Assembly: GCF_037392515.1 (NCBI RefSeq)
Contig: NC_090285.1
Location: 70,781,515 to 70,845,514, forward strand
DNA length: 64,000 nt
From: Haliotis asinina
Taxonomy: Eukaryota
Direction: 5' to 3'
Shown here: one piece after another, positions 25,099-63,530 of the stretch
How the letters are laid out: every line of letters begins with the position of its first letter
How positions within the stretch are numbered: the stretch's first letter is position 1
Notes under the pieces: model-generated
Told to the model about the DNA's origin: nothing
The model's input: only the letters and a program-made list of their open reading frames with translations
Databases searched by the model: none
Program-made: the position numbers and the translations under genes

Positions 25099-25099
25099 C

Positions 25100-28356: not shown

Positions 28357-28712
28357 AGTAGTATAGGGAATGGGGGTTTTAAAACACTTTCACAAAAAGT
28401 CTCTACAACGCCTTATTTACTAAATAAGACGTTGGTGGGCCCCTTAGCTCTTGCTACTATTACCCCTACTACAAAAAAGTTGGCGGTAATTACTGTGCCT
28501 TGGTAGGAGGTAACACTGTGCCGTACGGTACGATCAATAATTCTTCTCTTACAAATCCCCTACCCGGCCCACCCCTCAAGTAGTACAAGTTAGGTTCGTC
28601 GGCTTTCATATCCACTTTATCTATGTTGTAAGTTTTGACTGACCATATAGGATCGGTGGCTCGCTTACGGCTATCACCCTCGTGTTCCCCCGGCTGGTAT
28701 AGATACCTCACT
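28357..28712. repeat. Left terminal inverted repeat (contains the integrase 3' coding end)
   Basis: Reverse complement of 42335-42690. Only ~3 substitutions visible (integrase-tail translation differs at 2 of 73 residues). Confidence 0.9.
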
Positions 28713-29458
28713 AGGGCCCTATCTGGTATCTGTTTCTCCTTCCCACGCAATGGAGCGGCCGACTCTGCAACTATTGATTTTAGTTTGATAGCGTCTGCCG
28801 GTTTCTTACCGGTGAGACGGGTGACTTCATGGTTGATTGCCGACACCACCTTAGGTAACCTCGTGACCCATTCAGTCGATCGTTTTCCAGGGGTGACCAT
28901 CTCCCTAGCATACTGATAGCCGAACAAGCGCTCAGCCAAAGTCCTATTAAATCTCTCAACTATGGCTTGGCTGCGATGGGCTCCGGCCGTGCCACGCCTG
29001 ACCTTTGTATCGTGTTTGGCTAGCAGTTGTGACACGGCACCCATGAACTCCCGTCCGGGGTCAACTTGCAGCTCTGTTGGCCACGTCAGCGGGCTGCGTT
29101 TGTATATGCGTTCGAATCCTCTGGCTACCTGGGCCGAATCTTTCGTGGTCAAGGGTTCGGCTTCCTTGTAACGACTGGCTACGTCCACTACGGTTAAGGC
29201 ATACTTGTACCTCTTGTCGTGGGGTAGGAACAGTAGGTCTGCCTGGTGAACGCTATTAGGTATGTTAATACCGAACCTCCTTCTAGGCACGTAGCGTGGT
29301 GCCGGCAAATAGATCTGCCACAGGGCTTGTTTTTCAAGCCACGCTTTGGCTTCCTCCGGGGGTACTCGCGCTATTTTAGCTAGCTTATCTACTGCGCTAG
29401 CTCCTTTCCAGTACCCACGCGGGCTGTAGTAAATAGCCTCAAATTTTTTCATGTCCAT
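28490..29458 (-). CDS. Retroviral-type (rve) DDE integrase, 322 aa
   Basis: Catalytic triad contexts TVVDVASRY, LQVDPGREF, AIVERFNRTL. The C-terminal ~73 aa (SH3/chromo-like) are encoded inside the TIR. Confidence 0.9.
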   Translation of the reverse strand: MDMKKFEAIYYSPRGYWKGASAVDKLAKIARVPPEEAKAWLEKQALWQIYLPAPRYVPRRRFGINIPNSVHQADLLFLPHDKRYKYALTVVDVASRYKEAEPLTTKDSAQVARGFERIYKRSPLTWPTELQVDPGREFMGAVSQLLAKHDTKVRRGTAGAHRSQAIVERFNRTLAERLFGYQYAREMVTPGKRSTEWVTRLPKVVSAINHEVTRLTGKKPADAIKLKSIVAESAAPLRGKEKQIPDRALVRYLYQPGEHEGDSRKRATDPIWSVKTYNIDKVDMKADEPNLYYLRGGPGRGFVREELLIVPYGTVLPPTKAQ

Positions 29459-32400: not shown

Positions 32401-33172
32401 GAGGCAAGGCTAGGTATGACCCGCCTCTAAACGGCACGTAGTTAGCTATGTCTAGATAGACATTATCGATTTTATCTACAGCCCACCCGGACCCCAAGTG
32501 TGTGTAGCGTTCTAGGTATTCTTGTATCTGCTGAAAACTGGTATCGATTGATGTATCAATGGTCTCTGTATGTGTGGCGACCTCTTGTTGACCTCGGAAG
32601 TAAGGCTGAACATATTCAGTGGTACTCCCAACCTGCTTATCGAGCGACATTTTCACTGTGATCTGAAACTTGATACTTCCTAGGTTATTTAGTTCCTGGT
32701 TGACCTTATCAGCTATCAGAGGCTTGATATCTGTAATGTCTATGTTTCTATCAACGTGCATGCGCCAACCTCTCAAATGATTGGCTACAGCGCGCACAGT
32801 GCGCACGAACTGTAGGTCAATAGCTCTATTCTGTCGTAATAATTCTACAAGCTGTGGTTTTCTCATACGGGAATACCCGCCTAAACCCAAATCGTGTGCC
32901 TCGATTTTCAGTTGTTTTACAGTGGGAGGTTTTGCTACGGGGGCATGTGATAACAATGCGGTTAACCCGGCTCTCCCCAGGTTTGAATAACCCGTGTATC
33001 CAAGCTGTTTTGCTTGAGCTTTTAATTGTTTTACTGTAGGAGGGGCTTCTAAACCTAGTAATCTCAACAATGCTGACTTCCGCATTCTAGAATACCCGAT
33101 CACACCTCTCTGTTTTGCGACCCGCTTGAGCTCGCTTACAGTAGACATCGTGTTTACACCTAAGAGAACCAA
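29439..33172 (-). CDS. Protein-primed family-B DNA polymerase (pPolB), split by one frameshift near 31150-31180
   Basis: Exo I IYADFEALV, Exo II FHNLRGYDSHLI, KGVYPYEYMDSWAKF, motif A YLDANNLYGWAM, motif B KLMNNSVFGKTMEN, motif C VLYTDTDSL. ORFs 33172-31070 and 31154-29439 overlap by ~85 nt in different frames. Confidence 0.9.
32830..33172 (-). CDS. pPolB N-terminal region with three SAP/HeH-like repeats (terminal-protein region)
   Basis: VSELKRVAKQRGVIGYSRMRKSALLRLL / VKQLKAQAKQLGYTGYSNLGRAGLTALL / VKQLKIEAHDLGLGGYSRMRKPQLVELL. Confidence 0.5.
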
Positions 33173-33208
33173 TGTCTAATTGGTTCACAGTAAGGGGAGG
33201 TAACCCTT

Positions 33209-33475
33209 TCACACACTGGAGTCTATCTTGAGCAGTCGCCTACGTTCTTTTATGTAGCCTTTTTTATTCTCGTAGATGAGTTGATGTCTGACTACGTTCG
33301 CTCCGTGAGCTTTACATAGACAGTAGTGTCCTTTAACCCCGATACCACACACAGAACACGTGTAGTTAGGACTTCCCATATGGAAACAACAGAACCCCTG
33401 ATTCCTGCATTTCCTACCACAGGCCTCGGTCTTCCCCATAAGTATGTATTCGCATCGGTATGGAGCGGGTCTCAT
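33209..33475 (-). CDS. Small Cys-rich (zinc-ribbon-like) protein, 88 aa
   Basis: CGRKCRNQGFCCFHMGSPNYTCSVCGIGVKGHYCLCKAHG, about 12 Cys with CxxC-like spacing. Just upstream of pPolB on the same strand. Confidence 0.5.
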   Translation of the reverse strand: MRPAPYRCEYILMGKTEACGRKCRNQGFCCFHMGSPNYTCSVCGIGVKGHYCLCKAHGANVVRHQLIYENKKGYIKERRRLLKIDSSV

Positions 33476-33494
33476 GTTTACTTATATAGGTATT

Positions 33495-33920
33495 TTAATT
33501 TAATTGCTTCGCAACCAACGCAGTAGCTGCTATACCCAACACTATGAAGCCCAGTTCACGATTCATTTGTCCCTTGGATGGTGTGTAGTATTGAGCGAGT
33601 GTGGGTTTATTGAGCGGTTCCAATTGTTTACCAGTTAGTAGGTAGTATTCTTTCATTGCTTCATCGACATCGTTGAATGTTTGAACGGCATGGTTTTCAC
33701 GCTGGAGTTGTTCGTTAATAAAATCGATCCTCTGGAGGCATTTTTTAGCGTAATCGGCCTGTGCTCTTTGTAATTTCTCAGTAGCGAGATCGTGTCGCTT
33801 CCTTTCTTCCTGTATTTCAGCCGCGTGATCATCTCGTAGTTTCGAGAAGAGGAAATTACTCCCGGAAAATGCCAGGGCATTCACTAACGCCCCACCGACC
33901 ATCATAGCTATCGTGGCCAT
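33495..33920 (-). CDS. Hypothetical membrane protein, 141 aa (N- and C-terminal hydrophobic segments flanking a coiled coil)
   Basis: MATIAMMVGGALVNALAFSG ... EIQEERKRHDLATEKLQRAQADYAKK ... LGFIVLGIAATALVAKQL. Confidence 0.5.
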   Translation of the reverse strand: MATIAMMVGGALVNALAFSGSNFLFSKLRDDHAAEIQEERKRHDLATEKLQRAQADYAKKCLQRIDFINEQLQRENHAVQTFNDVDEAMKEYYLLTGKQLEPLNKPTLAQYYTPSKGQMNRELGFIVLGIAATALVAKQLN

Positions 33921-33927
33921 CCTATAT

Positions 33928-34155
33928 TTATTTCATTATATTATCAGGTATGATCCCTTGTTTTACTAGGATGTCTTTTGTGGCCATCGCCATACCAAGG
34001 TTCATTATGAGCATACCCATATCCTGCAGGTTGAAATCTAGCTTGATAGTTGGTTGTTTAAGCACCATTTTAGTCAACCGAGCGTACCCTACTGCTAGAC
34101 TGGCTACCACTGTGGCGTGGTATGCGTCGTTGACGAACGTTTTCCCCTCAGACAT
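33928..34155 (-). CDS. Hypothetical small protein (~75 aa from MSEGKTF)
   Basis: ORF 33928-34269 trimmed to the internal ATG. AT-rich region directly upstream. Confidence 0.35.
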   Translation of the reverse strand: MSEGKTFVNDAYHATVVASLAVGYARLTKMVLKQPTIKLDFNLQDMGMLIMNLGMAMATKDILVKQGIIPDNIMK

Positions 34156-34495
34156 TATGTATATGATATAAAATATTAAAATTATAACATGATATGCGGG
34201 TCGACAGTGGGGCCTGCCGGCGCGTGGGGGTATCCCCCACACCCCCAGAGTTTCCCTCAGTTCTCCCACTATATAACAATGTTATAACCACGGCAGCAGT
34301 TACGCCTACAGCCAACAACAGTCGGGTTGGGTTGGTCACTTTATGTTGGTTACACCACCGTTTTTTACCGGCAGCTACTCTCTTAGGATTCTTCTGCCTG
34401 GTTACTGTGGGGGTCACTTCCCTCACTGAAGGGGTCTCCACCGTCACTGTTGGGGGTGGGGTCTCCTCCACTGGGGTTTCCTGTGCAGCATCCAT
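34148..34495 (-). CDS. Hypothetical Pro/Thr-rich protein with one transmembrane helix, 115 aa
   Basis: TPVEETPPPTVTVETPSVREVTPTVT ... LLLAVGVTAAVVITLLY. Confidence 0.45.
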   Translation of the reverse strand: MDAAQETPVEETPPPTVTVETPSVREVTPTVTRQKNPKRVAAGKKRWCNQHKVTNPTRLLLAVGVTAAVVITLLYSGRTEGNSGGVGDTPTRRQAPLSTRISCYNFNILYHIHNV

Positions 34496-43933: not shown

Positions 43934-44719
43934 TTGTTACGTCACATAAGAAGTTTGAACATCAGTGAGATTAAACCCACAAATAGAGGCTGTAGAGGTG
44001 GCAAACGTAAACAAAAAGCATTATGGTCTGCTCGTGAGATTTCAAGTGAGTACCCTTATGATCATACATCACAACCGGTTAATGACAGGACATCACTTGA
44101 TAGTCTGAAGATAAGCGTATGGAATGCTCAGTCTGCTAGAAATAAAACTGTTGAAATTGCTGACTACATCATAGAATCAAACATTGACATTCTTTTCTTA
44201 ACTGAAACTTGGTTGTCAGTAATCGGAGATGAATCAAAATGCTCTGAGATCACACCAATTGGTTACAAACTTCACCATGTACACCGACTTAGTGGTAGAG
44301 GCGGAGGTATAGCTATGATATATAAGAAGGACATGGTTATCAGTTTCTCTAAACTGACTGATAGATTCGTTACTTTTGAGTACGTGGTGGCTGTCATCAG
44401 CTTTGGGAAAATGACATTGAAGACTGTCTGTCTATATAGACCCCCACCCTCAAAAGGAAATAATCTGAAAAACTCAGATTTTCATACAGAGTTTTCATCA
44501 CTGTGTGATTATTTAGATGGCAAGACTGGAACCTACCTAATTCTGGGAGACTTCAATGTCCAGTTTGACAAAAAAGAAAATAAACTGACAAAAAACGTGT
44601 GTGCAGTTCTTGACTCTCATGCCTTAAAGCAACATGTTGCTGAGCCCACACACAAATCTGGCCACGTTCTTGACTGGATACGTAGTACGTGGTGGCTGTC
44701 ATCAGCTTTGGGAAAATGA
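43934..44719 (+). CDS. LINE apurinic/apyrimidinic-type endonuclease (EEP) domain
   Basis: ISVWNAQSARNKTVEIADYIIESNIDILFLTETWL ... LILGDFNV. Confidence 0.8.
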   Translation: MLRHIRSLNISEIKPTNRGCRGGKRKQKALWSAREISSEYPYDHTSQPVNDRTSLDSLKISVWNAQSARNKTVEIADYIIESNIDILFLTETWLSVIGDESKCSEITPIGYKLHHVHRLSGRGGGIAMIYKKDMVISFSKLTDRFVTFEYVVAVISFGKMTLKTVCLYRPPPSKGNNLKNSDFHTEFSSLCDYLDGKTGTYLILGDFNVQFDKKENKLTKNVCAVLDSHALKQHVAEPTHKSGHVLDWIRSTWWLSSALGK

Positions 44720-45276
44720 CATTGAAGACTGTCTGTCTATATAGACCCCCACCCTCAAAAGGAAATAATCTGAAAAACTCAGATTATTCAGCATTTCATA
44801 AATGATCTGAAGGCATCAACACTCCTTCGTTGTCCTCCTGATGATGTTAATGAACAGGCAGCATTGTTTGATAAAACATTGCTTGACCTACTGAATAAGC
44901 ATGCACCAATCAAAATCAAACTAATTTGTCCTCAACATACAGCACCTTGGTACTGTTCAGAGGTCAGAAACACAAAGAGAAAGAGGCGTGCTGCGGAGTG
45001 ATGCTGGCGTAAGTCACGACTTGAAGTCCACCGCCAGATGTACAACTCTGCACGGAATGAAGTAAACAGATGTATCAGAAAGGCTAGATCAGATTACATC
45101 ATTCAAGAAATTAACACTAACAGTGATATTCCTAAGCTCTTGTTTTCCACGATTAACAAGTTGCTCGGCAAGAAGGCGGATGTCACTTTGCCACATGGTA
45201 CTGATACAACTCTGGCAACAACTTTAGTACGTATTTCTCAGAGAAAATATCAAAGATACGCCATGGTCTGGGGTCC

Positions 45277-46876
45277 GTGTGTGTTACTGGTTCTTATATA
45301 AACTACATGGGAACCAAATTTCCTTCTTTCACCCCAGTCTCGGAACTGCAATTAAAGAGACTAATGACTTCATCTAAACCAACATCTTACTCGCTAGACC
45401 CACTACCCACAAAATTCCTCTTTGGATTAGTGGACGTGCTTCTTCCCATGATAACAAAGATTGTACACACCAGCTTGGCCACTGGAAAGGTGCCATCATG
45501 CTTCAAAGAGGCAGTTATCAAGCCACAAATCAAGAAACCAGCTCTTGACACTCAGACCTTGAGCAACTACCACCCGGTATACAACCTGACATTCATGTCA
45601 AAGATTCTAGAAAAAGTTGTTAAAGCACAGCTCGTGGAACATCTTCAAAAGTCTAATCTGATGGACAACTATCAGTCCGCATATAGAGTGGCACACAGCA
45701 CTGAGACGGCTCTAAACTGTGTTATGAATAACATAAAAATGTCAGTTGATTCTGGAGACATTGCCATGTTTGTCCTGTTAGATTTATCATCCGCTTTCGA
45801 CACCATCGACCACGCAATGCTGCTGAGTCGTTTGGAACATGACTATGGCTTGAACGGCACTGTCCTGGAGTGGTGTTCATCATACCTTACAGATAGGAAA
45901 CAGTTTGTCCAAATAAATAAAGCTATGTCCTGCCTGTGGTGTCCCTCAAGGGTCCGTGCTAGGTCCGATCCTTTTCACCATGTACACAAGACCTCTGGGA
46001 CACTTGATATCAGAGAAGCATGTGGCTCATCATTTCTATGCCGATGACTCGCAGCTGGTAGACAGTTTCAGACCCATCTTAGCAAGTCAGATGGAATCTT
46101 TGCATAACATGGAAAGTTGTCTCAACATTGTCAAATCCTGGATGTCAACCAACCTGCTTAAATCAAATGACGAAAAGACAGAGGCCATCATCATCGCTCC
46201 ACCTTCTAGACAGCAAAAATCCCGGCTAACCCACTTGCAAATTGGACAGTCTCTCGTACCTTTCTCGCCTCATGTAAAAAATCTTATTGACTCTTCTCTT
46301 ACTACGGATAAGCAAGTGGACCATCTCTGCGAAGTATGTCACTTTCATTTGAGAAACATAGGATCAATCCGTCATCTTCTTACAGCTGAAACCACAGCCA
46401 CTCTGGCTGGATCACTCATACTTTCTCGTCTGGATTACTGTAACAGCTTACTCATGGGAATATCAGGAGATCAGCTGAACAGACTGCAGAGGATACAGAA
46501 CAGGGCTGCCCGTATAATAACCAGGACTAAGCTCCATTCTCACATCTCCCCTGCTCTAAAGTCACTGCACTGGCTCAGGATCCGTGAAAGGATTGACTTT
46601 AAGATCCTTTCTTTAGTCTACATGTCTTTACAAAACACTGCCCCTGTCTATCTTCAGGACATGTTTGCCCACTACAAGCCCTCTAGAAATCTCCGATCAG
46701 CTGACCAACTGCTCTTGACTGAACCAGTATATAAACTGAAATCTATTGGGGCTCGATCCTTCTCACATGCAGCTGCCTCATTATGGAACTCTCTCCCATT
46801 TAACCTCAAGAGTGCACCTACGCTATCTTTGTTTAAATCTGGACTAAAAACGTATCTCTTCCAACGCTACCACTAA
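45277..46876 (+). CDS. LINE reverse transcriptase (two overlapping frames)
   Basis: FVLLDLSSAFDTIDHAMLLSRL, GVPQGSVLGPILFTMY (shifted frame), HFYADDSQL, LLKSNDEKTEAIII. Confidence 0.85.
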
Positions 46877-49209: not shown

Positions 49210-49870
49210 AATGACATAATGTCTGCTACAAGTCAGTCTCCATACTGACAAGGGTGTTAGAGTGTCTGCTACAAGTCAGTCTCCATACTGACATGGATGA
49301 GAGAGTGAGTGTCTGCGACAAGTCAGTCTCTATTCTGACAAGGGTGAGAGAGTGAGCGTCTGCTACAAGTCAGTCTCCATACTGGCATGGATGAGAGAGT
49401 GTCTGCTACAAGTCAGTCTCCATAGTGACAAGAGTGAGAGAGTGAGTGTCTGCTACAAGTCAGTCTCCATACTGACATGGATGAGAGAGTGAGTGTCTGC
49501 TACAAGTCAGTCTCCATACTGACATGGATGAGAGAGTGAGTGTCTGCTACAACCCAGTCTCCATACTGACATGGATGAGAGAGTGTCTGCTACAAGTCAG
49601 TCTCCATACTGACATGGATGAGAGAGTGAGTGTCTGCTACAACTCATGGCCAGTCTCCATTCTGACAAGGGTGAGTGAGTGAGTGTCTGCTACAACTCAT
49701 GGCCAGTCTCCATTCTGACAAGGGTGAGTGAGTGAGTGTCTGCTACAACTCATGGCCAGTCTCCATTCTGACAAGGGTGAATGAGTGAGTGTCTGCTACA
49801 ACTCATGGCCAGTCTCCATTCTGACAAGGGTGAGTGAGTGAGTGTCTGCTACAACCCAGTCTCCATACTG
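49210..49870. repeat. ~60-bp minisatellite, ~11 copies
   Basis: gtctgctacaagtcagtctccatactgacatggatgagagagtgagt with variants. Confidence 0.9.
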
Positions 49871-50410
49871 ACATTGATGAGTGAGTAAATATGTGATACA
49901 GCACTCTCTCATTACCGTAAAACACCAGCTCAGCTGAATAAAAGCACATGTATTGCTGTACACGATAGTATGGCATGATATAGGAAATATTGTCCATTTG
50001 AGCACTCCATGCACATTCACAACATATATTGTTGTTGATTTTCAGATGAAACTGGCAACTATATCTCTCTCTATTTTGTTTAAATCAGACTGAAGGTAAA
50101 AACTGCCTTATCATATGAAGAGACAACCCCAGATCCCCACCCAGACCCCAAAAGAAAGGCTTGTAGATTTAGCAATGTCATTTTATCATTCAGCTTGTCA
50201 CATTCTGTGTTTGCTTGAGATATTGACACACTTATGAACAGCCTGTAAAAGCAAGGGCTGATTAGGGTTTTGTTGTTGTGTATGACTAGTTTACATCCTC
50301 GACCTTCCCTCTCGTCACATCCTGGCAGTCAGTGGGAGATACACTTCCTTGTTTCTGGACTGCAGTGTGTTTCTGTGGCCAACACAGTCAAACTGTCACC
50401 AACGAACACC

Positions 50411-50462
50411 ATGGCGGCCAACACTCTCTATGTTGTCCTGGCTCTCTGCTCTCTGGGTCATG
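50411..50462 (+). CDS. Exon 1 of a novel type-I membrane protein gene: start codon plus signal peptide
   Basis: accATGG Kozak context. MAANTLYVVLALCSLGH then G|gtaagt donor (phase 1). Confidence 0.6.
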
Positions 50463-50721
50463 GTAAGTCTCAGTCATGTCCCATCTCCTGGATCTGTCTT
50501 ACGCTTGTCCCATCTCCTGCTGCTGTCTCACACGTCCTATCTCCTGGTGCTGTCTCACACTCAGTAATGTCCTGTCTCCCAGTGCTGCCTTACACTTGCG
50601 TCATCTCCTGGTGTAGTGCTGTGTCACACGTCATATCTCCTGCTGCTGTCTTACACTTGTCCCCATCTCCTGCTGCTGTCTTACACTTGTCCCCATCATC
50701 GTTTGGCTTCAGGGATGGTAG

Positions 50722-50885
50722 GGTAGTCTAGTAGTTAGAGTTCATTCATCATGCCAAAGACCAGGGTTTGATAACCCACATGGGTACAATGTGTGAAGCC
50801 TATTTCTGGTGACCCATGCTGTGATATTGCTAAAAGCAGCATAAAACTAAACTCACTCTTTCTTCACATGGTGCTATCACACACT
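50722..50885 (+). mobile_element. tRNA-derived SINE copy
   Basis: gggatggtagggtagtctagtagttagagttcattcatcatgccaaagacc...gtgtgaagcctatttctggtgacccatgctgtgatattgctaaaagcagcataaaactaaactcactc. Confidence 0.7.
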
Positions 50886-50999
50886 TCAAGGCAGCCACCG
50901 TGAATTTGCTTTCTCAAATGTTCCTGGTTGCGTACAAATACAGGAGACATTTGTACTCCTTGCCGAACACAATGTGATCAAATCAATCTGTGGGAGTAT

Positions 51000-51410
51000 T
51001 TACAATATCACCTGTCAATCCATTTCAATAGGAACAATTACACCTGTCAATTTAATTCAACAGGAACAATAACACTTTACAATCCATTTCAACAGGAACA
51101 AAAAAACCCAAAACACTTGTCAGTTCATTCAACAGGAGCAATAACACCTGCCAATCCATTTCAACAGGAACAAAAAACAAACACTTGTCAGTTCATTCAA
51201 CAGAAGCAATAACACCTGCCAATCCATTCAAACACCTGTCAGTTCATTCAACAGGAGCAATAACACCTGCCAATCCATTTCAACAGGAACAAAAAACAAA
51301 CACCTGTCAGTTCATTCAACAGGAGCAATAACACCTGCCAATCCATTTCAACATGAACAAAAACAAACACCTGTCAGTTCATTCAACAGGAGCAATAACA
51401 CCTGCAAATC
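51000..51410. repeat. ~60-bp minisatellite, ~6 copies
   Basis: cacctgtcagttcattcaacaggagcaataacacctgccaatccatttcaacaggaacaaaaaacaaa repeated. Confidence 0.85.
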
Positions 51411-51424
51411 CATTTCAACAAGAA

Positions 51425-51600
51425 ATTGGGTGGTGGGGAAGTCTAGTGGTTAAGCGTTTGCTCGTCATGCCGAAGACCTGCATTCTGTTTCCCACATAGG
51501 CAAAATGTGTGAAGCCCATTTCTGGTGTCCTCCACCATGATATGTCTGGAATATTGCTGAACACGGCATAAATGTAAACTCACTCCCTTACTCAGTAGGA
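51425..51600 (+). mobile_element. tRNA-derived SINE copy
   Basis: gggtggtggggaagtctagtggttaagcgtttgctcgtcatgccgaagacc...gtgtgaagcccatttctggtgtcctccaccatgatatgtctggaatattgctgaacacggcataaatgtaaactcactccc. Confidence 0.75.
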
Positions 51601-51679
51601 ACAATAACACCTGTCAATCCATGAGAACAAGAGAACAAAGACATTAATGTACCCACCACAATGGCAAAATATTCTTCAT

Positions 51680-52560
51680 AAATATGTCTACAAGTTGTAA
51701 TTATGTCAAATGTTTTGGCATGTGTATAGCAAAGTGGAAGGACAGTACTGAAAGATTTTTAAATTCTGCTCCTGAAAAGAGCAATATCAGAAGCCAACCT
51801 TATTGTCATGGAGACATAAAAACTATTTTAGTCAGAATTAACTACCAAAAGGCACCAGTTCACCACTAGATATGCATATGTATGAAATTTTAAAGTTCTG
51901 CTCGAGAAAAAAGCTGTATCACCAATTTGAGTAAGAGGCAAACTTGTTGCAATCGAAACTCCCAAAAATATTTTATTCAGAAATCCAAAACTACCAAAAG
52001 GCACCAGTAGATCACCAAATCTATCTATGTGCAAAGTTTGGTGAAAAAACATTGAACAGTTTTAGATTTCTGCTCCAGAATAGAGTACTGCCATCAATTT
52101 CAAACCATGAAAAAAAACCCAACCAATTTTATTCAGAAATCCAAAACAACGGAAAGGCACCTGGTCACCACTAGACCTACCTATGTATGAAATTTGGTGA
52201 TGAAACAGTAAACAATTTTTAAGTTCTGTTCCAGAAGAGAGAAAAACTACTACCAATTTCGGTCTAAGTCTAACTTGTTGCCATGGAAATGCCAAATATA
52301 TTTTAATCAGAAATCCACCAACTAGCAAAAGGCACCAGTAGACCATGACAGATCTATATATGTGCCAAGTTTGGTGAAGAAATATTGCATGGTTTTAAAA
52401 TTCTGCCCAGGAAAAAAACACTACCACCAATATCAGTTTAAGTCAAACTTGTTGCCATTAGAAACACAAAAAACCATTTTACTCATAAATTTAATACTTC
52501 CAAAAGAAACCAGTAGACAACCACATCTACCTATGTGCCACGAGTTTGGTGAAGAAACAT
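51680..52560. repeat. ~170-bp tandem units related to the 47500-48470 satellite (~5 copies)
   Basis: ...aaactaccaaaaggcaccagtagatcacc...tatgtgc(a/c)aagtttggtgaa(a/g)aaa(c/t)attg(a/c)a...tt(t/a)a(g/a)atttctgc(t/c)c(c/a)... Confidence 0.7.
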
Positions 52561-52699
52561 GAACAGTTTGAAAGCTAAGCTCCTGAAAAGACAAAATTGC
52601 ATGGACGCATGAACAAATGGATGAACGGAGTCCATTTTAATACCCCCCAGCAAAACGCAATCCATTTCACTAGGTACAATAACACCTGTCTATCCATGA

Positions 52700-52870
52700 A
52701 TGTAGGAACATTAATGTGGCATGGTGGTGAGCTGTCTAAGGTGACAAGACGTGTGATCCAGTGAGTTTGAGGTGCTGGGTTCGAGCCTACCTGTGATCAG
52801 GTGTAAAAACCTTGGAGTCAACTTTGTGTGCAGGCTCTTTCTGCGTTGTCACAATCCCTAGTGTGCATTT
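52700..52870 (+). mobile_element. tRNA-like SINE of a second family (B-box GGTTCGAGCC)
   Basis: gtggcatggtggtgagctgtctaaggtgacaagacgtgtgatccagtgagtttgaggtgctgggttcgagcctacctgtg. Confidence 0.5.
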
Positions 52871-52904
52871 ACCCTGTAGCGCTTTAAAGAATTCTCGAAT
52901 CCAT

Positions 52905-53020
52905 TGGTAAATGGCCAGACAGTGGCCACATGTGGCAGGGGCAGCAGAAATGGGCTTTACACTTTGTACCCATGTGTCAAATCAAACTTGGGCCTTTGGC
53001 GTGACAAGCGAACACTCAAA
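52905..53020 (-). mobile_element. SINE copy (first family, reverse orientation)
   Basis: cagaaatgggctttacactttgtacccatgtgtcaaatcaaacttgggcctttggcgtgacaagcgaacactc is the reverse complement of the SINE head and core. Confidence 0.6.
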
Positions 53021-54824
53021 TGTCACATGCAACGTAAAACACAACTTTGCAGATTCTGGTACCTTTCGGTATTCACTTACCGAAACAAATCATAAAAATG
53101 CCAATTCAACCTATAAAGTTGAAAAAAAAACGCGATGAAAAAAAAGCCCACAAAATTGGAGTTCAAACGTTTCACTAAATTCCCCCCAGCGCTGGGGGGA
53201 AAACTGGTTTCAACAGCTGTGCTCCGCTGCGCCCAGAACGCATGCCCAGTGAATAGGTTCGCGGAGCTTGAAACAGTATGCATGCCCAGCGTCTGAGGTC
53301 GTGAGCAGTAGTCTAAACTTGGTTGTGTACACAAACAAGTAAATAATCTACTTGTTACGTAAAAAAACTTGTTGATTGTGGTAAGCAGTCTCTGTCACAG
53401 AGAAAGCTCAGTGTCTGGTTTATTCACACCTATGTGTCTGTCTGCCTGTCTGCTAAAGACAACATGCAATCCACAGCTTCAATCATTGACCACTTGCAAT
53501 TTGAACTTAACACCTATCAGACTATACGACATAAAGAAAATAAGTTGATTAATGACTCGTGCACTCAAGTCCTGTGTCTGTCATATTATGTAGGCACGTG
53601 TGATACACATGGCATGTTTTATGTCTGTGGGTTGCAAACAAACTACATTCATTTTTTTCGGATGACTGGATCTGAGGGAAACTGGTACTGATTGGATCGA
53701 GCGCAAATTAAGAGAACATGTATTTTCCAAACCCAACATCTCTATATACATTCTTCATGTGTAACGACTTCTTTTAGTGTATATGATTTTGTTTGACAAC
53801 AGTATATGAATCCATACTGAAAGGAGGCATCAAGTACACAAAAGAAGTTGTTATCCATAAAGAATCTTACTTTCTTATAACTGACTATACTTCTAAAATG
53901 CCCATCAAACAGATCATCTTTCTGTACACACAATGAACCCTCAGCATATCAGCAAATGAAACAGCCAATCGGAAGCCGTCGTTACACTTGAGTGCATATC
54001 CACCCGCTATGACGGGGGAAGTGAGCCCAAGTACAAAATATTGCACGTTTTAATCACGATTGTATGCTTATAATTTTGTTTATTTGTTTTTTTTTAAAAG
54101 AAGCAATGTATATTATATGTCATGAATAAGTGATAAATGTGTTTTATTTATGTTTGATTTTTTGGTTGCATGTGACCTTTAACCACTAGGCTACCCAACA
54201 TGCAAACATTTAGTTGTGGCTACAGCAACGTGCAGTAAACACAGACAAAGTGGTGTGACTATGTATCCCAGGCCTTTCGGCTCTGAATGGGTACCTGATA
54301 GGAACGGGAAAGCCACATTAACTCCGTGTGCCTAGTGGCTGCAAGAGTTGTTCGTTCCCCTGGGAGATGAGAGACTGACATCCAATTATCAAGGGTGAAA
54401 AACAAAGGGCCTTTGCACAGCTGGATATTGATAATATACAAATGTTAGCATGATAATAACAACAACTGTCAATCCATGTAAGTACGTTCAATAACACTTA
54501 CTAATCCATGTCTATAGGAATAATAGAAACAATAAAAACATATTCCACATTCATAAGAAATCTGGAATAACACTTCAGTCTATGTCAGTCACACAAATAG
54601 AAACTGCCATTAAAGCCATGGCGATAGGTGCCTTCCCCTCACTTCCTTGCACAGAACCTTGTACAAGTAAGGTATACACCCCATGAAATATCTCTCCCTC
54701 AGTATGAACTACAGCACAACACCCCTTGACACAGGTCACAAATACAGGTCTAGAAATGATCAAATACTTCATTTGATAAATACATAGTGTCCTGTAATTA
54801 ATTCTGTATTTCTTCGTATACCAG

Positions 54825-55268
54825 GTTCTGTTCTGATTCCGATGTGTTCCCACCTGGAGACCAACTGCTCCAACTTCCCTGTTACGTTGTACATGAATGG
54901 TGAAGATAATTCAAGTTCTCCTGTTTGCTCGTGTGAAGTTCAATCAGACAGTCACTTCTACATCACATTAAAGAGGTTCAGACAAACCAGCCTGGGAACT
55001 GGAAGCTTCATCATCCACATGGCAGCTACCACTATGTCCAACATGACAAATACAAGCAATACCGTCATGACATATGGTCTAGACCTGTTTACAATGCACA
55101 ATGATCTGGGTGGATCTGACTGTTTGCTACAGGTGGGAGACAACACAAAAGGCCTCCCAACACAAACCTGCTGGTTCAGGAACAGGTCATCTGAAGGTGG
55201 TGTCACCCTGCAGACCCCTAACAACCTGTCACATGACGGCTATCTCTATCTCAGCGTGTATGGTGAAG
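54825..55268 (+). CDS. Exon 2: extracellular domain (~148 aa, 8 Cys, about 6 N-glycosylation sequons)
   Basis: Acceptor tataccag|GT restores the frame (G+GT=Gly). GSVLIPMCSHLETNCSNFPV...NTSNTV...CWFRNRSSEGG...YLYLSVYGE. Donor GAAG|gtaaaa (phase 1). Confidence 0.6.
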
Positions 55269-55909
55269 GTAAAATCCTGTTATCTTCCACACTGAAACTA
55301 CCTATACTACTAGGGCACACTGGAGGACAGGCCCCTGTCAGGATGTTCATCAGTGAGTGTGGATTCACACCACATATATAAACCCCAAGTGTGCCTCTCA
55401 CTATATATTAGGTGATCTCTTTTTTTCCAAGAGTAACTGCATTTGAGGTTTTTGTTTTAAATGGACAGGTTTAACTTTTTGCTAGAAAGACCTCTTCCAA
55501 GGTTTTACTTTTCCTAACTTTACATGAACATCACCATTCAAATGATATGAGTGTATGAAATCAGTTGAAAAATATCATGCAGATAAAAGCTCAACGTGCA
55601 AATGTTTTCGGTAGCACGATTGAACTGAAACTCTCAGATTTGTAGGCTAACACTCTACCACAAAGCCACATGACCAATGAAGGAAGTGGGGTTGAATTAT
55701 CTATTTATAGCCACTGTCATTAAATCGGCTTTATGTGCCCTTCAGTTATTGTTATGTAGCTTAATTAAATGTTCATCTACATTGTAATTATCCATCACTG
55801 AGAGAAACACTTCTCCTTGGTTTTGGTAGACAATGTAAGACCATCAGGTCAGGAAATCCCTTTGATTTTACATTGTCTACCAAAATCTTGGAGGCATGTT
55901 TCCTCCTAT

Positions 55910-56045
55910 ACTAAGCAATATTCCAGCAATATCATGGTGGAGGGACACCAGAAATGGGCTATACACATTGCACCCTTGTGGGTAATCGAACTTAGGTCTT
56001 TGTCATGACAAGCAGACACTTAACCACTAGGCTACCCAACAGCCC
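55910..56045 (-). mobile_element. SINE copy (reverse orientation)
   Basis: Reverse complement reads gggggctgttgggtagcctagtggttaagtgtctgcttgtcatgacaaagacc...gtgtatagcccatttctggtgtccctccaccatgatattgctggaatatt. Confidence 0.75.
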
Positions 56046-56109
56046 CCGACAGTCAGGCAGAGGCTTGACTTGCTTAACTGCCTGTCCTTAAAACCCAATG
56101 CCTTTAACT

Positions 56110-56275
56110 GTGGCTTACAATAGGAAACACAGGATTACCCAGGTGAGACTCTAATATTAATACAGGATTACCCAGGTGAGACTCAAATATTAATACAGGA
56201 TTACCCAGGTGAGACTCAAATATTAATACAGGATTACCCAGGTGAGACTCAAATATTAATAGGCTGAAGTATTGC
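56110..56275. repeat. ~35-bp minisatellite, ~5 copies
   Basis: ggattacccaggtgagactcaaatattaatacag repeated. Confidence 0.9.
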
Positions 56276-56299
56276 TAAGTGCAGTAAGTAAGTGGTTTG

Positions 56300-56420
56300 C
56301 GTTTTATGCCACTTACAACAATATTGCAACATTGTGAGGGACACGGGAAATGGGCTTCACATGCTGGGAATTGAACCTGTGTGTAAAGTGAACGCTTTAA
56401 CCAATAGACTACCCCACAGT
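56300..56420 (-). mobile_element. SINE copy (reverse orientation)
   Basis: cattgtgagggacacgggaaatgggcttcacatgctgggaattgaacctgtgtgtaaagtgaacgctttaaccaatagactaccccacag. Confidence 0.65.
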
Positions 56421-57646
56421 CTGGGCTGAATGCAGAGACAAACAGCACACACATGCGCAAACATATCACCATTGTCCATGTTGCAACTTGTATACATAAA
56501 GGACTTTGTATTATTAATGGATGAAACATTCCCCAGCCCCCCAACTCCCCCAACAAGTTCTTTTCCCAGTCAGGTGCATCTAGCACTTCCATGTTCACAT
56601 CCACGAGTGAAAACAGTTATAGCTGCTTTACAAAAAAACTCACAATAATCTGTAGCAGCAGGAGATCAGGAAAAACTGTTGTCGGCTAATTATTGATCAA
56701 TTCCTGTATTGGGAACCAACTGCTCCTATGTTCACACACCTGTTCTACCCACATCCACACAGTTTATTCCTCACCCTTTAATCAACTGACCACCCTTGGC
56801 AAAGCTTCTTGGTAACTAAATAATTGTGTACTTGCTTTTCAGGTAGTATTCAGTTTTGCTGTAAGCCTGTACAATCTTTCCTCAACAAGAGTGTGCATAT
56901 AATGAACTCAAGGACAAAAAACATGGTAGGCAACAAAACTTCACCTCCAAGAGCTGAACTACGGACAGATGAAAGACGCGGTAAGCAACTTCAATCAGAC
57001 AGTAATGCATTTAAGTATAGGAGAAAACACTTCTCGGTTTTGGTAGACAATGTAAATACAGAGGGGGAGGGGAATGCCAACTCCGATGGTTTTACATTGT
57101 CTGCCAAAACAAGAAGTGTTTTCTCTTACATATATACCGTCAATGATGGGTAATTACAGTGTAGATGATCATTTAATGAAGTTACTTAACAATAACTGAA
57201 GCACCCATAAAATCAACAGTAACCCTCACCTTCGTTGGCCTGGTGGCCATGTGGAAGAGTGTCTGCCTACTGATCTGACATTTGTGGTTCTAATCCCCTT
57301 TCGGAAAACATTTGAGTAGTGAGTTTTATCTTGAATGTTATTTTTCAATTGATTGCAAGCACTCATGTATCATTTGAATGTTGATGTTCATATAAAGTTT
57401 GGAAAAGTAAAACCTGGGACGTGGTCTTTCTAGCAAAAAGTAAAACCTGGGAAGAGGTCTTTCTAGCAAAAAGTAAAACCTGTCCCTCAAAAAACAAAAA
57501 CCTCAAATAAGTTTATTCTGGGAAAACAAGAGATGACCTAATATATAGTGAGAAGTACACTTTCTGTTTATATAAAGAATTCACGCACTATACACTGCAG
57601 ATCTTATAGCTACATAGATTTGTATATGTCCTTCATATTTTAACAG

Positions 57647-57722
57647 TGATGACTGCAGCAATCATCATTTTGGGTATTGGCTGTGTTGTCCTGGGAATGG
57701 CCATTTGCTGGCTCATACACAG
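57647..57722 (+). CDS. Exon 3: transmembrane helix
   Basis: Acceptor ttttaacag|TG. (V)MTAAIIILGIGCVVLGMAICWLIH. Donor CACAG|gtaact (phase 2). Confidence 0.6.
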
Positions 57723-57779
57723 GTAACTCTCTACTGCATCATTGGTAAAACAAATATAATTACACAAAAACACACACTT

Positions 57780-58930
57780 ACCCCTGGACAGGAGGGTGGA
57801 CAGGGTAGAAAAGGCTGTGTAACCTGTAGATTAAGGACCAAAGGTAGAGATAAGAGGGAGGATAGGGTAGTAGAGAAGGTTGGGGAACTTAGTGATAAAG
57901 GACCAAGGGTAGAGATAAGAGGACAATAGGGCAGTAGAGAATGTTGGGTAGAGAATGACCAAGGGTAGAGTTGAGAGGGAGGATAGGGCGATAGAAAAGG
58001 TTGGGTTGTGGATTAAAGACCAAGGGTAAAGTTGAGAGGGAGGATATGGTAGTAGAAAAGGCTGGGAAACTTGTGGATTAAGGACCAAGGGTAGAGTTGA
58101 GAGGGAGGATAGGGCGATAGAAAAGGTTGGGGAACTTGTGGATTAAGGACCAAGGGTAAAGTTGAGAGGGAGGATAGGGTAGTAGAAAAGGCTGGGAAAC
58201 TTGTGGATTAAGGACCAAGGGTAGAGTTGAGAGGGAGGATAGGGCGATAGAAAAGGCTGGGGAACTTGTGGATTAAGGACCAAGGGTAAAGTTGAGAGAG
58301 AGGATAGGGTAGTAGAAAAGGCTGGGAAACTTGTGGATTAAGGACCAAGGGTAGAGTTGAGAGGGAGGATAGGGCGATAGAAAAGGTTCGGGAACTTGTG
58401 GATTAAGGACCAAGGGTAAAGTTGAGAGGGAGGATAGGGTAGTAGAAAAGGCTGGGAAACTTGTGGATTAAGGACCAAGGGTAGAGTTGAGAGGGAGGAT
58501 AGGGCAACAGAAAAGGCTGGGGAACTTGTGGATTAAGGACCAAGGGTAAAGTTGAGAGGGAGGATATGGTAGTAGAAAAGGCAGGGAAACTTGAGGATTA
58601 AGGACCAAGGGTAGAGTTGAAAGGGAGGATAGGGTAGTATAAAAGGTTGGGAACTTGTGGATTAAGGACCAAAGGGTAGAGTTGAAAGGGAGGATAGGGT
58701 AGTAGAAAAGGTTGGGAAGTTGTGGATTAAGGACCAAGGGTAGAGTTGAGAGGGAGGATAGGGTAGTAGAAAAGGCTGGGAAACTTGTGGATTAAGGACC
58801 AAGGGTAGAGTTGAAAGGGAGGATAGGGTAGTATAAAAGGCTGGGAAACTTGTGGATTAAGGACCAAGGGTAAAGTTGAGAGGGAGCTTAGGGTGATAAA
58901 GAAGGCTGGGGAACCTGTGGATTAAGGACC
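57780..58930. repeat. ~60-bp minisatellite, ~19 copies, in the intron between the TM exon and the tail exon
   Basis: gattaaggaccaagggtagagttgagagggaggatagggtagtagaaaaggctgggaaacttgtg with variants. Confidence 0.9.
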
Positions 58931-59040
58931 AAGGGTAGGGAAGAGATAAGAGTGTAGGGAAGATAAAGAGGGCTGGGAAACTGAAGCTTACATAAAATAT
59001 GCTGCATGTCTCCAGTTTCAGCAATATCAACTGGGTAATA

Positions 59041-59055
59041 GAATCATAATCATAC

Positions 59056-59088
<33 letters not shown>
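59041..59088. repeat. (CAT)16 microsatellite
   Basis: catcatcat... uninterrupted. Confidence 0.95.
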
Positions 59089-59090
<2 letters not shown>

Positions 59091-59818
59091 GCTGGGAATG
59101 CTCAGTTCAATTTGCCATTAATGTATGATTTGTTGTGATCCTTGTCCTATCTGTCGACACCATAGCCTCGACTGTTAGTTGCAGTTAGTGTTCAAGGGAT
59201 GTCATCCTCTTCATATTAGAGATTCTTCATATCTCTTGATAACCTCAAGTCAAAGCTGCCAAGGTGGAATATTCGCACTGGCATTAATCCTAGGAATGTT
59301 CCACAGGAAATTCCTCTGTTCCAATCATATTCAGCAGAAAGCTCCCCTATCCCATTTATATGTAAAAATCAAAACTGTGAGGTTTTGAACCAACTGAAGA
59401 TACACTTTAGATATAATTTAGATATTAGGTATGTACTGGCAGCCAATATGTTGCCTTGCACATGCAATGCACGCGCTCTGCATTCGCTACCTGTGTCTTG
59501 TGAGGACATACTGACGAACACTCACATACTTCACAGCAATTCAAAATTTATAGCAGTAAAGAAATTCAATTCAAGAGCTACTCCTCAGAAAATCCTTGGG
59601 CAATTCTGAAGAAAATCACTGGGAAGGAGAAACTTGGGAGACATTATACAGTGGGGGTTTTCATTCTGCAGAAAGTCCTTTTGTTCTGGTGATTTTCTGC
59701 AAAAGGTCACTCTATTAAAGTGACATTTTACTGAAAGTTCATCACCTTGTAATATAGCTGACATAATGTTCAAATAATGTTTTAAGCAAACTTATCATCA
59801 TAATTATGAAAATTGCAG

Positions 59819-61658
59819 AAATAAACAGTTATCTCAGAAAAGACACAAGAAAGCTCGGAAGAAAATATCAACTCACACACACTGGAAACCTGAAGCTGAA
59901 AGCCACTATGAAGAAATGCATGAAGATCTGACCAAAACAGGAAACACTGAATCCACATCAGAAAATGTGCAGCAACTTGACAGTGAAGCCTATGAACTGG
60001 CCAAGGCCCCAGTTCCCTTGTGTAGCCCCTGCAACATGGCCAGCGACCAGGATAGCAGTCTGTATGATGTTGCCAGTGCTCTCAACAGCAAAGTTGTAGC
60101 ACCATCAGGCAATGTTGACAAGAAGGGTGGTGCATTTGACACTTGTAAACCAAATGGAAAACATGGTCACATGGATTCTGATAACATCTATGACAAAACT
60201 GTCTTCACTGCAGATTCCAGTACACCTGTTCCAGCGTCTGATAATGGTGACGATGTTCCAGTGTCACATTATATAGACGAACATAACCTAACCTCTGCTG
60301 TGCCAAGTTCCATGTCCACCAGAGGTGATGTCAGCAGTGTACTGCCCAGTGTTTCTGATAAAAAGCCAAAGAAATCATTGGATAAGACCACAAGTCATTC
60401 TGCTTTGAGACTTGTGAGGCAGAAGTCTGTAGAAGTACGGTTCTTTGAATCTGGTGATTTGGGGCCTGAAGTTGGCATGGATAGCCCTGATGCTGACATG
60501 CAGGTGTCACAGTTCATTAATGCTGCACACAATTCTACACCTGAAGTTTGTGAGGAAGAATTTGAAAATGTGTCATCATGGAGTAACTGTTTGGATAGTG
60601 AAGATGAAGAAATCTATGTGAATCAGGAGGTTGGCAAGGGATGCTACAGCACTAGCAATAAAAGTAAATCTTTGGAAGATTCCCAGAGTATCTCCTCTAC
60701 ACAGGGAGACAGCCAGTGGGCCAGTTTGACAGACAACCACAGGATAAGTTCATCCCCATCCAAACCACAGTCAGACACTATAAGGAAAAGTGTGTCCCCT
60801 TCAAGGACAGACAGTCAGTTGGCATCATCACCTGTGAGTTGTGTGCCTGAAAATTCAGTATTTCACAATGTACTTCCAGCATCATCAGCAGACAGCCTTT
60901 CATCAGGCGCCTCACAGACCTTGGACTTGGATAATGATGATATGATCTACCAAAACGTTGCCTTGGAAATGACAAACTCCACAGCATCATTGCTAGACAT
61001 CACTTCAGATCCTGAAAAACCTTATGAAAACCTCAAGAGAGGACAAACTTATGTCCCTGACAGCAAAACTCCAGCATCACTCAACAAATCTGATGAAGTT
61101 GAAGTGGTCTTTCTGCTGGGATCAGATTCAAACAATGCAGAAGAAGAGGAGTCTGGAGCAATGCCCAAAACACGATCAGCTAAAATCGGTCACAAACATT
61201 CATTTTCTGTAGATGAAACTTCTAAAATCCAAAGACCAACAAGAAAGCACCGTACACGTAGTGATGACACAAATATGCTGATACCTTCTAACTCAAGCTC
61301 CGATGAAGATATCTTGGAGATGACAAACAACAACTTGTATGAAGGCATAAACAACAGTTTGAGAGCAACACCCATCAAAGAGCCTGCTAGTCAAACAGTC
61401 AACACTCAGACAAGAACAGTTCCTCTGAAGCAGCTACCTGGACCTGTTGCCACAAGTGTCAGATCCTCCAATGAGGATCTTGGTGATGACAGTGACGATG
61501 AGATGGTCATGATGGAGAATGATATATATGAATGCCTGAAGGGGGGAGTGTCACTCTTCCCCTCCCCTCTTGCTGCACAGATCAAGCTGAAGGTAGAATG
61601 CACTAATCCCAAAAATACTTTGTATGAAAATGAGACTTTTGCAGAAGAAAGGCCATGA
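59819..61658 (+). CDS. Exon 4: basic stop-transfer then ~610-aa Ser/Asp/Glu-rich cytoplasmic tail, stop at 61656-61658
   Basis: Acceptor aaattgcag|A (AG+A=Arg). RNKQLSQKRHKKARKK... runs in frame into the 580-aa ORF 59916-61658. Confidence 0.6.
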
Positions 61659-61749: not shown

Positions 61750-63530
61750 GAAGTCACTTGGTAGTATACTCTTGTGGCATATCATGTCTACACTCTACAT
61801 ATACACACCATGCCTACACACCATGCTAACATGCCTTGCCTATATGTCTTGCTTATGTGTCATGCCTATATGCCGTGACTACACATCCTGCCTACATGCT
61901 GTGGCTTTATGCAGTGCCTACATGCTATGCCTATACATTGTGCCTACACACTGTGCCTACATGCCTTGCCTACATGTCTTGCTTATACATCATGCCTACA
62001 TGATGTGCCTATAAGCTGAGCCTACATGCCTTGGTTTCATGCAGTGCCTATACTCTATGCCTATACACTGTACCTCTGCACTGTGCCTACATGCTGTGGT
62101 TTCATGCAGTGCCTAAATGCTGTGCCTATACACTGTGTCTACACACCATGCCAACATGCTGTGACTTCATGCCGTGCCTATACACTGTGCCTAGACACTG
62201 TGCCTCTGCACTGTGCCTACATGCTGTGGCTTTATGCAGTGCCTAAATGCTGTGCCTATATACTGTGTCTACACACCATGACAACATGCTGTGGCTTCAT
62301 GCAGTGCCTAAATGCTGTGCCTATACACTGTGCCTACACACCATGCTGATATGCTGTGGCTTCATGCCGTGCCTATACACTGTGCCTACATGCCGTGGCT
62401 TCATGCAGTGCCTATACACTGTGCCTCTGCACTGTGCCTACATGCCGTGGCTTCATGCAGTGCCTAAATGCTGTGCCTATACACTGTGCCTACACACCAT
62501 GCTGATATGCTGTGGCTTCATGCCGTGCCTATACACTGTGCCTACATGCCGTGGCTTCATGCAGTGCCTATACACTGTGCCTCTGCACTGTGCCTACATG
62601 CCGTGGCTTCATGCAGTGCCTAAATGCTGTGCCTATACACTGTGCCTACACACCATGCTGATATGCTGTGGCTTCATGCCGTGCCTATACACTGTGCCTA
62701 CATGCCGTGGCTTCATGCAGTGCCTATACACTGTGCCTCTGCACTGTGCCTACATGCCGTGGCTTCATGCAGTGCCTAAATGCTGTGCCTATACACTGTG
62801 CCTACACACCATGCTGATATGCTGTGGCTTCATGCCGTGCCTATACACTGTGCCTACATGCCGTGGCTTCATGCAGTGCCTAAATGCAGTGCCTATACAC
62901 TGTGCCTACACACCATGCTGATATGCTGTGGCTTCATGCCGTGCCTATACACTGTGCCTACATGCCGTGGCTTCATGCAGTGCCTATACACTGTGCCTCT
63001 GCACTGTGCCTACATGCCGTGGCTTCATGCAGTGCCTAAATGCTGTGCCTATACACTGTGCCTACACACCATGCTGATATGCTGTGGCTTCATGCCGTGC
63101 CTATACACTGTGCCTACATGCCGTGGCTTCATGCAGTGCCTATACACTGTGCCTCTGCACTGTGCCTACATGCCGTGGCTTCATGCAGTGCCTATACACT
63201 GTGCCTCTGCACTGTGCCTACATGCCGTGCCTATACACTGTGCCTACATGCCGTGCCTGTACACTGTGCCTCTACACTGTGCCTACATGCCGTGGCTTCA
63301 TGCAGTGCCTATACACTGTGCCTGTACACTGTGCCTCTACACTGTGCCTACATGCTGTGGCTTCATGCCGTGCCTATACACTGTGCCTGTACACTGTGCC
63401 TCTACACTTTGCCTACATGCCGTGGCTTCATGCAGTGCCTAAATGCCGTGCCTATACACTGTGCCTCTGCACTGTGCCTACATGCTGTGGCTTCATGCAG
63501 TGCCTATACACTGTGCTATATAATTCCAGC
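61750..63530. repeat. Long minisatellite array (~20-bp core units in ~140-bp higher-order repeats) in the 3' flank of the membrane-protein gene
   Basis: gtgcctacatgc(c/t)gtggcttcatgcagtgcctatacactgtgcctctgcact... Many repeat-induced ORFs on the plus strand. Confidence 0.9.

Follow-up and report, generated by a model that had tools for sequence, protein, structure and literature searches.

A Haliotis-restricted membrane glycoprotein gene nested in an ASCC3 intron, with a possible phosphotyrosine docking scaffold in its tail

What does the interval 50411-61658 of a 64,000-nucleotide stretch of the Haliotis asinina genome encode, and what might its product do? The stretch (contig NC_090285.1 of assembly GCF_037392515.1, positions 70,781,515 to 70,845,514 of the forward strand; hereafter the window, in whose numbering coordinates are given) had been read from its letters alone, and this sequence-only reading proposed a new gene of four exons for a type-I membrane protein that automated predictors may miss. 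We find that the gene is real, that it has five coding exons and that it is not new: RefSeq already models the locus in four abalone species. Its product is, judging from the sequence, a single-pass type-I membrane glycoprotein with an ectodomain of ~150-195 amino acids (aa). We regard this gene model and topology as very nearly certain, while the function that we propose below is tentative. The five coding exons are as follows, with a slash marking each exon boundary.

50411-50462, plus strand: coding exon 1, with the start codon in the context caccATGG, the probable signal peptide MAANTLYVVLALCSLGH and, as its last letter, base 1 of the codon for G18; donor G/gtaagt, phase 1
54825-55268, plus strand: coding exon 2, the main ectodomain; acceptor ccag/, donor G/gtaaaa
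56843-56980, plus strand: coding exon 3, 138 nucleotides (nt) encoding 46 aa (GSIQFCCKPV...TDERR); acceptor cag/, donor G/gtaagc, phase 1 to 1
57647-57722, plus strand: coding exon 4, the transmembrane (TM) helix VMTAAIIILGIGCVVLGMAICWLIH; acceptor acag/, donor G/gtaact
59819-61658, plus strand: coding exon 5, a polybasic stop-transfer sequence and a 612-aa acidic, serine-rich tail; acceptor gcag/, TGA stop

The four segments of the earlier model (exons 1, 2, 4 and 5) are all present with canonical AG/GT sites, and the ATG does lie in a Kozak context. Their lengths of 52, 444, 76 and 1840 nt bear out the junction phases 1, 1 and 2, and splicing them in silico yields 2412 nt and an open reading frame (ORF) of 803 codons with zero internal stops. 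What this model overlooked is exon 3, which begins cag/GT and, being 138 nt long, preserves the phase and is invisible to splice-phase logic alone. Apart from this one phase-neutral exon, the reconstruction was accurate.

The exon is present in both RefSeq isoforms of H. asinina, XP_067674879.1 (X2, 849 aa) and XP_067674878.1 (X1, 877 aa). These are Gnomon models, and over the common exons both match the window at 100% identity (by tblastn for XP_067674879.1). X1 differs by an alternative exon 2 donor at 55352 (A/gtgagt), 84 nt downstream, which adds 28 aa. The orthologue search that the sequence-only reading had called for found LOC124279145 in H. rubra, LOC124112360 in H. rufescens and XP_071113984.1/XP_071113985.1 in H. 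cracherodii. Models of the gene thus exist in three further Haliotis species, contrary to the expectation that predictors may miss it, and all four species share the five exons with their splice sites. A literature search for the LOC and XP identifiers, or for the RefSeq name in Haliotis, found no paper.

Exon 3 encodes a membrane-proximal stalk that carries two N-glycosylation sequons and the sixth invariant cysteine of the ectodomain, the other five invariant cysteines being encoded by exon 2. Skipping it leaves the message in frame, owing to its length of 138 nt, and the four-exon form may occur as a minor isoform. RefSeq models this layout only in H. cracherodii (X2, XP_071113985.1, 812 aa); the exact 803-aa product is absent from a collection of 15 billion proteins, in which the RefSeq cluster of the gene holds X1 and X2 only. 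Since the sixth cysteine is encoded by exon 3, the four-exon form would be left with an odd cysteine, and we infer that a structurally complete protein requires exon 3. The exon is bracketed by the two arms of an inverted repeat:

55375-55912, no strand assigned: left arm of the inverted repeat, ~540-560 bp, 69% identity
57014-57574, no strand assigned: right arm, the partner of 55375-55912

Inverted repeats on either side of an exon are known to drive its skipping and back-splicing, and it may be speculated that exon 3 forms a circular RNA by means of these arms.

Is the locus a functional gene at all? A chance assembly of open frames, a pseudogene or a misprediction within an intron of ASCC3 could present itself as an orphan, intronic to another gene and with a high ratio of nonsynonymous to synonymous differences (pN/pS), and the H. 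rubra assembly does carry a frameshift in the last exon. Against this, the length of the exon 5 ORF is far beyond chance: 5.1% of the window's codons are stops, and the probability that 613 codons would stay open is ~9e-15. The frame is moreover open in four species over a synonymous divergence (dS) of up to ~0.6, with every splice site conserved. Codons threaded onto the four-species alignment and counted by the Nei-Gojobori method give a pN/pS of ~0.6-0.75 for the gene, significantly below 1; for the whole gene between H. asinina and H. rubra the value is 0.62 (Fisher p = 2.8e-5 against neutrality), which shows that the locus is genuinely coding and weakly constrained. As for the frameshift, it consists of 1 nt in an A5 homopolymer (19085-19100 of the H. 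rubra locus, QXJH01000247.1) and cuts the RefSeq protein to 669 aa, but beyond it the other frame is open for ~200 codons to the conserved ...AKERP stop, so that the assembly is probably in error here and the truncation not real. We reject the pseudogene or chance-ORF explanation on conservation and pN/pS, and give it next to no credence.

When the 849-aa and 877-aa products were looked up as exact sequences for transcript evidence, no record was returned. The sole Logan contig that matches the gene, from DRR299178, includes the intron 4 acceptor and is on that account genomic rather than cDNA. No AATAAA or ATTAAA occurs from the stop codon (61658) to the end of the window, from which it follows that the 3' untranslated region either crosses the adjoining minisatellite or uses a variant signal. 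That minisatellite (61811-63520, units of 52/156 bp) starts 150 bp after the stop codon; another, with 47-bp units, lies 500 bp ahead of the start codon, at 49220-49886.

The topology can be read from the hydrophobicity profile and the order of the exons. On the Kyte-Doolittle scale there are hydrophobic peaks only at the N-terminus (residues 5-8; LYVVLALCSL) and at the TM segment. Residues 5-16 (LYVVLALCSLGH) form a hydrophobic core, that of the probable signal peptide, followed by the small residues G-H-G ahead of S19, and this segment is conserved in all species. The single internal peak, of 2.8, corresponds to VMTAAIIILGIGCVVLGMAICWLIH (residues 212-236), the 25-aa helix that had been described; it is followed by RNKQLSQKRHKKARKK, the expected polybasic stop-transfer. 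Eight sequons lie upstream of the helix, six of them in exon 2 and two in exon 3. One TM peak, one polybasic stretch and these eight sequons fit a single-pass, N-glycosylated protein and uphold the earlier picture of a type-I membrane protein.

The ectodomain resists classification. Exon 2 does hold multiple N-x-S/T sequons, as had been reported, but calling it cysteine-rich was generous, as it has six cysteines, five of them invariant. AlphaFold2 models show an all-beta region and then the TM helix, and the predicted fold is a generic beta-sandwich of low confidence. We thus picture, from prediction, a beta-rich, N-glycosylated ectodomain of ~150 aa with six conserved cysteines and a 46-aa stalk exon. 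No Pfam ectodomain family (Ig, CUB, MAM, GOLD and others) matches above its gathering threshold, nor is there a confident structural match, and a sequence-profile search of the PDB with the ectodomain and TM segment gave 0 matches at E <= 10; the statement that the ectodomain has no recognisable family thus holds. For the whole H. asinina protein and four orthologues Pfam likewise reports nothing at threshold, matches such as those to TMEM51, TMEM100 and Ureide_permease being sub-threshold noise driven by the TM segment.

Relatives were sought at two depths. A word-indexed search of 5.8 billion proteins returned five matches, and all those with a named source are from Haliotis; the best is XP_067674879.1, annotated as "serine-rich adhesin for platelets-like isoform X2". 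When 1.84 billion representatives at 50% identity were searched exhaustively with a HMMER profile, two came back, both representatives of Haliotis clusters, and hence no remote homologue outside the genus. As far as HMMER detects, the family is confined to Haliotis and without paralogues.

The RefSeq name implies a mucin-like or adhesive surface glycoprotein. Serine does make up 15% of the tail, and in the Californian species the stalk exon is rich in proline and serine (NASPSPSPSPSPNPSPSPSASPPS). The serine-rich part, however, follows the TM helix and the polybasic stop-transfer; it is therefore cytoplasmic and cannot be an O-glycosylated mucin. There are no dipeptide repeats of the serine-rich-repeat type, no LPXTG motif and no Pfam match. 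The abalone gene also differs from the serine-rich repeat adhesins SraP and GspB in being eukaryotic and spliced, and in having its serine (15%) in non-repetitive sequence on the cytoplasmic side. We consider an adhesin or mucin very improbable and, on topology, effectively refuted; the name is an artefact, derived from composition when names were assigned automatically.

The tail itself is 612 aa long (the sequence-only reading had given ~610), with 15% serine, 16% aspartate plus glutamate and a net charge of -37. It is acidic and serine-rich as had been described, though merely enriched in these residues and not truly of low complexity, and it is predicted to be disordered. The suggestion that it is probably phospho-regulated appears to us the right reading, inferred as phosphorylation is from sequence motifs. 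In a five-species alignment tyrosine is the most conserved residue type of the tail: 10 of 13 tyrosines are invariant, against 43% of all columns (Fisher p = 0.013), and the residues at +1 to +3 after them are also conserved. The contexts that recur across species are these:

Y267: YEEM / YEDM
Y295: YELA / YALA
Y319: YDVA
Y503: DEEIYVNQ
Y614: IYQNV
Y639: KPYENL
Y744: NNLYEGI / NNLYEDI
Y807: MENDxYExL (YECL in H. asinina)

YxxM is the consensus for the PI3K subunit p85, and YE[ED]I comes near the optimum of the Src family, both by established SH2 specificity. The motif YxN occurs at 4 of the 13 tail tyrosines (binomial P = 0.007), and three of its sites, YVNQ, YQNV and YENL, are invariant in the five species. 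YxN is the motif bound by the SH2 domain of Grb2 and is used repeatedly by LAT, NTAL and LAX (PMC2196071; PMC3291652). The tail also has conserved islands that resemble sites of basophilic kinases (LVRQKSVEV, GHKHSFSVDE and RKxRTRSDDT), together with CK2-like acidic serine clusters.

Ectodomain and tail have evolved at different rates. Between H. rufescens and H. cracherodii the introns of the gene have diverged by 0.060-0.063; pN of the tail is 0.029, below this intron divergence (p = 3e-7), whereas in the ectodomain pN is 0.102 and pS 0.089 (not significant), corresponding to a nonsynonymous divergence (dN) of 0.110 and a dS of 0.095. The nonsynonymous rate of the ectodomain is thus 3.8x that of the tail (p = 2e-7) and 1.75x the local intron divergence of 0.063 (p = 0.004). 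At the protein level H. asinina is ~47% identical to the Californian species in the ectodomain and 56% in the tail. Episodic positive selection on the ectodomain would fit this pattern, which is nevertheless no proof of it. The fast change of the ectodomain hints that its target changes too, and might be a pathogen, for instance, or a ligand particular to the species.

From these observations we propose, tentatively and at about even odds for the account as a whole but somewhat less for the scaffold function, that the protein acts as a receptor specific to its lineage, whose tail contains a LAT-like phosphotyrosine scaffold for SH2 docking. Once the ectodomain binds a ligand or clusters, cytoplasmic kinases would phosphorylate tail tyrosines, and the phosphorylated tail would then serve as the docking scaffold. 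In such a scaffold YE[ED]M would be a YxxM site of the PI3K-p85 type, YVNQ, YQNV and YENL three YxN sites of the Grb2/Drk type, and YE[GD]I and YExL sites of the Src/Syk/Shc type, with the conserved basophilic and CK2-type serine sites modulating docking. The analysis shows the structure of the gene, its conservation and taxonomic restriction, the features of its topology, the asymmetry in rate and the conservation of the motifs; phosphorylation, SH2 partners and ligand are all putative.

Several observations weigh against this proposal. Tyrosine motifs are degenerate, and five of the short ones (YEEM, YQNV, YENL, YEGI and YECL) also fit the endocytic signal YxxPhi. The spacing of immunoreceptor tyrosine-based activation or inhibition motifs (ITAM or ITIM) is absent from all 13 tail tyrosine contexts: no pair has ITAM spacing and no tyrosine combines a permitted -2 residue with I/V/L at +3, so that we rejected an ITAM/ITIM reading, MENDxYExL being only loosely like a hemITAM. 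The species alignment shows no conserved juxtamembrane palmitoylation motif; only H. asinina has a cysteine near the cytoplasmic end of the TM segment (AICW), where AIGW or VTFW/ITFG stands in the others. Finally, measured against the synonymous sites of the ectodomain itself, its ratio dN/dS (omega) does not exceed 1 significantly (p = 0.84), and in exon 2 between H. asinina and H. rubra the ratio, as pN/pS, is 0.58, so that relaxed constraint may be at work instead of positive selection.

The fit to YxxPhi raises the question of whether the tail serves trafficking rather than signalling. The tyrosines would then be clathrin-adaptor signals and the acidic serine clusters (SEDEE, SSSDEDI and DDSDDE) CK2-regulated sorting motifs of a cargo-type protein that cycles between the surface and the endosome or trans-Golgi network. 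The five matching motifs are in keeping with this, as are the conservation of several of the acidic clusters and the strongly negative charge of the tail. Yet YxxPhi as a class is not enriched (P = 0.10) while YxN is, and asparagine at +2 is invariant at three sites, one of which, YVNQ, has no hydrophobic residue at +3; a pure YxxPhi signal requires neither. Sorting signals usually lie in short tails, and six or more of them across 600 disordered residues would be unusual. We think a trafficking role rather unlikely.

The ectodomain might instead be the functional part, in a species- or immune-recognition protein under diversifying selection like that of gamete-recognition proteins, with the tail as a weakly constrained spacer. 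Abalone are known for rapidly diverging extracellular recognition proteins (lysin/VERL), and the present ectodomain resembles these in that its nonsynonymous rate exceeds the local intron divergence in the Californian pair; it differs in having no sequence relationship to them and in being part of a membrane receptor whose cytoplasmic tail is large. The low identity of the ectodomain, its high dN and the confinement of the gene to the genus all speak for a recognition role. On the other side stand the values of omega given above and the significant constraint on the tail with its conserved motif islands, which is hence no mere spacer. Taken as an alternative, we put this at about the same low probability as trafficking, and it complements the receptor-scaffold proposal rather than excluding it.

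How, then, does the proposed receptor scaffold compare with systems of known function? The leukocyte adaptors LAT, NTAL (LAB), LAX and PAG of vertebrates are likewise single-pass proteins with a long, motif-poor cytoplasmic tail in which tyrosines are conserved. LAT has the sites YVNV and YENL. NTAL has five YxN sites (PMC2196071), to be compared with YVNQ, YQNV and YENL in the abalone protein. In contrast to these adaptors, the abalone protein has an ectodomain of 150-195 aa that is glycosylated and contains cysteines (that of NTAL is ~6 aa; PMC2196071), its tail is much longer, a conserved juxtamembrane CxxC palmitoylation motif is absent and there is no sequence homology, whether in the profile search of 1.84 billion representatives, in the PDB or in Pfam. 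Three of the four features that define LAT and NTAL (the short ectodomain, CxxC and homology) are thus lacking, and the abalone protein is not a member of the family; by analogy, it may work as they do. Receptors with a built-in YxN/YxxM tail also exist, such as CD28 with its YMNM, which has an ectodomain of the Ig family and a short tail. The abalone protein shares with CD28-type receptors the combination of ectodomain, TM segment and a tail with PI3K-type YxxM and Grb2-type YxN, but its ectodomain has no assignable family.

The genomic setting of the gene is shared across the genus. The 3' exons of ASCC3 lie in the window on the minus strand from 18265 to ~24.6 kb, identified by Sec63 domain matches named ASCC3 and by PDB 8alz_B (E = 6e-18). 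Between ~25 kb and 60 kb, a phmmer search of concatenated minus-strand ORFs against the PDB found no further ASCC3 exon ORFs of at least 42 aa. A 2198-aa call on the opposite strand (ASCC3_N, DEAD and Sec63) covers the whole locus in H. rufescens and H. cracherodii and extends beyond both 10-kb flanks, and in H. rubra an equivalent 2199-aa ASCC3 call on the opposite strand spans the orthologous locus. In every species checked, the gene for the membrane protein thus sits antisense within a large intron of ASCC3, a helicase gene.

The introns of the nested gene are rich in repeats. The sequence-only reading had noted an intronic minisatellite of 1.1 kb, which we recovered:

57805-58938, no strand assigned: minisatellite in intron 4, 65 bp x 17.7 copies, also present in the intron of the H. 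rubra orthologue

It had also noted SINEs (short interspersed nuclear elements). Dispersed repeats of 130-170 bp do occur in introns 1 and 2, but ARAGORN found no tRNA-like head in them. The family is found in both orientations (50749-50862, 51428-51600, 52932-53019 and 55914-56052, and outside the gene at 10053-10450 and 11335-11507) and also in the H. rubra locus, and may be described as SINE-like or as resembling miniature inverted-repeat transposable elements.

The same ASCC3 intron holds a 14.3-kb Maverick/Polinton-like element at 28357-42690, whose 361-nt terminal inverted repeats (28357-28717 and 42330-42690) show 98% complementarity. The recognisable genes of the element are:

28490-29458, minus strand: rve integrase
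29439-33172, minus strand: protein-primed PolB-like ORF, split in two, with a YTDTDS motif and an Endonuclease_7 match
35121-35756, minus strand: packaging ATPase of the poxvirus A32 type

Several ORFs of the element that belong to no family may be capsid genes. The block is missing from the orthologous H. rubra intron, which indicates a recent insertion, and the element may still be intact. A decayed, frameshifted non-LTR (long terminal repeat) retrotransposon lies in the ASCC3 intron at 43934-46876 on the plus strand, with an endonuclease (Exo_endo_phos) and a reverse transcriptase (RVT_1) spread over three ORFs; the H. rubra interval at this position is much shorter. The intron also contains a ~1 kb minisatellite block at 25037-26108. 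Elsewhere in the window, remnants of Tc1/mariner-type transposases were recognised by eye from DDE-like ORF translations at 1088-1459 and 4667-5224 on the minus strand. A degenerate 21/42-bp tandem array of ~1.2 kb (6258-7491, plus strand) encodes, in one frame, heptads like those of the RNA polymerase II C-terminal domain (YSPTSPR ~15x) in a 137-aa ORF at 6177-6590, and is probably a mere minisatellite.

As a gene discovery this work adds nothing, the locus being in RefSeq for four abalone species. Its value lies in correcting a misleading automated name, since the serine-rich part is cytoplasmic and the protein is no adhesin, and in drawing attention to an uncharacterised membrane protein found only in Haliotis, with conserved SH2-type motifs, an ectodomain that changes about four times faster than the tail and a position nested within ASCC3. 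A more far-reaching account would make it an orphan receptor restricted to the genus, which arose or diverged beyond recognition in the ASCC3 intron and joins a positively selected ectodomain to a PI3K-, Grb2- and Src-type scaffold, as an invertebrate counterpart, of independent evolution, to the LAT-like adaptors of vertebrates, fused to a receptor. We regard that full account as doubtful, with perhaps one chance in a handful of being right. If it is true, this genus-restricted receptor might serve species-specific or pathogen recognition, and if the scaffold function holds, abalone would offer a tractable lineage-specific receptor that uses the ancient phosphotyrosine/SH2 machinery in a commercially important mollusc.

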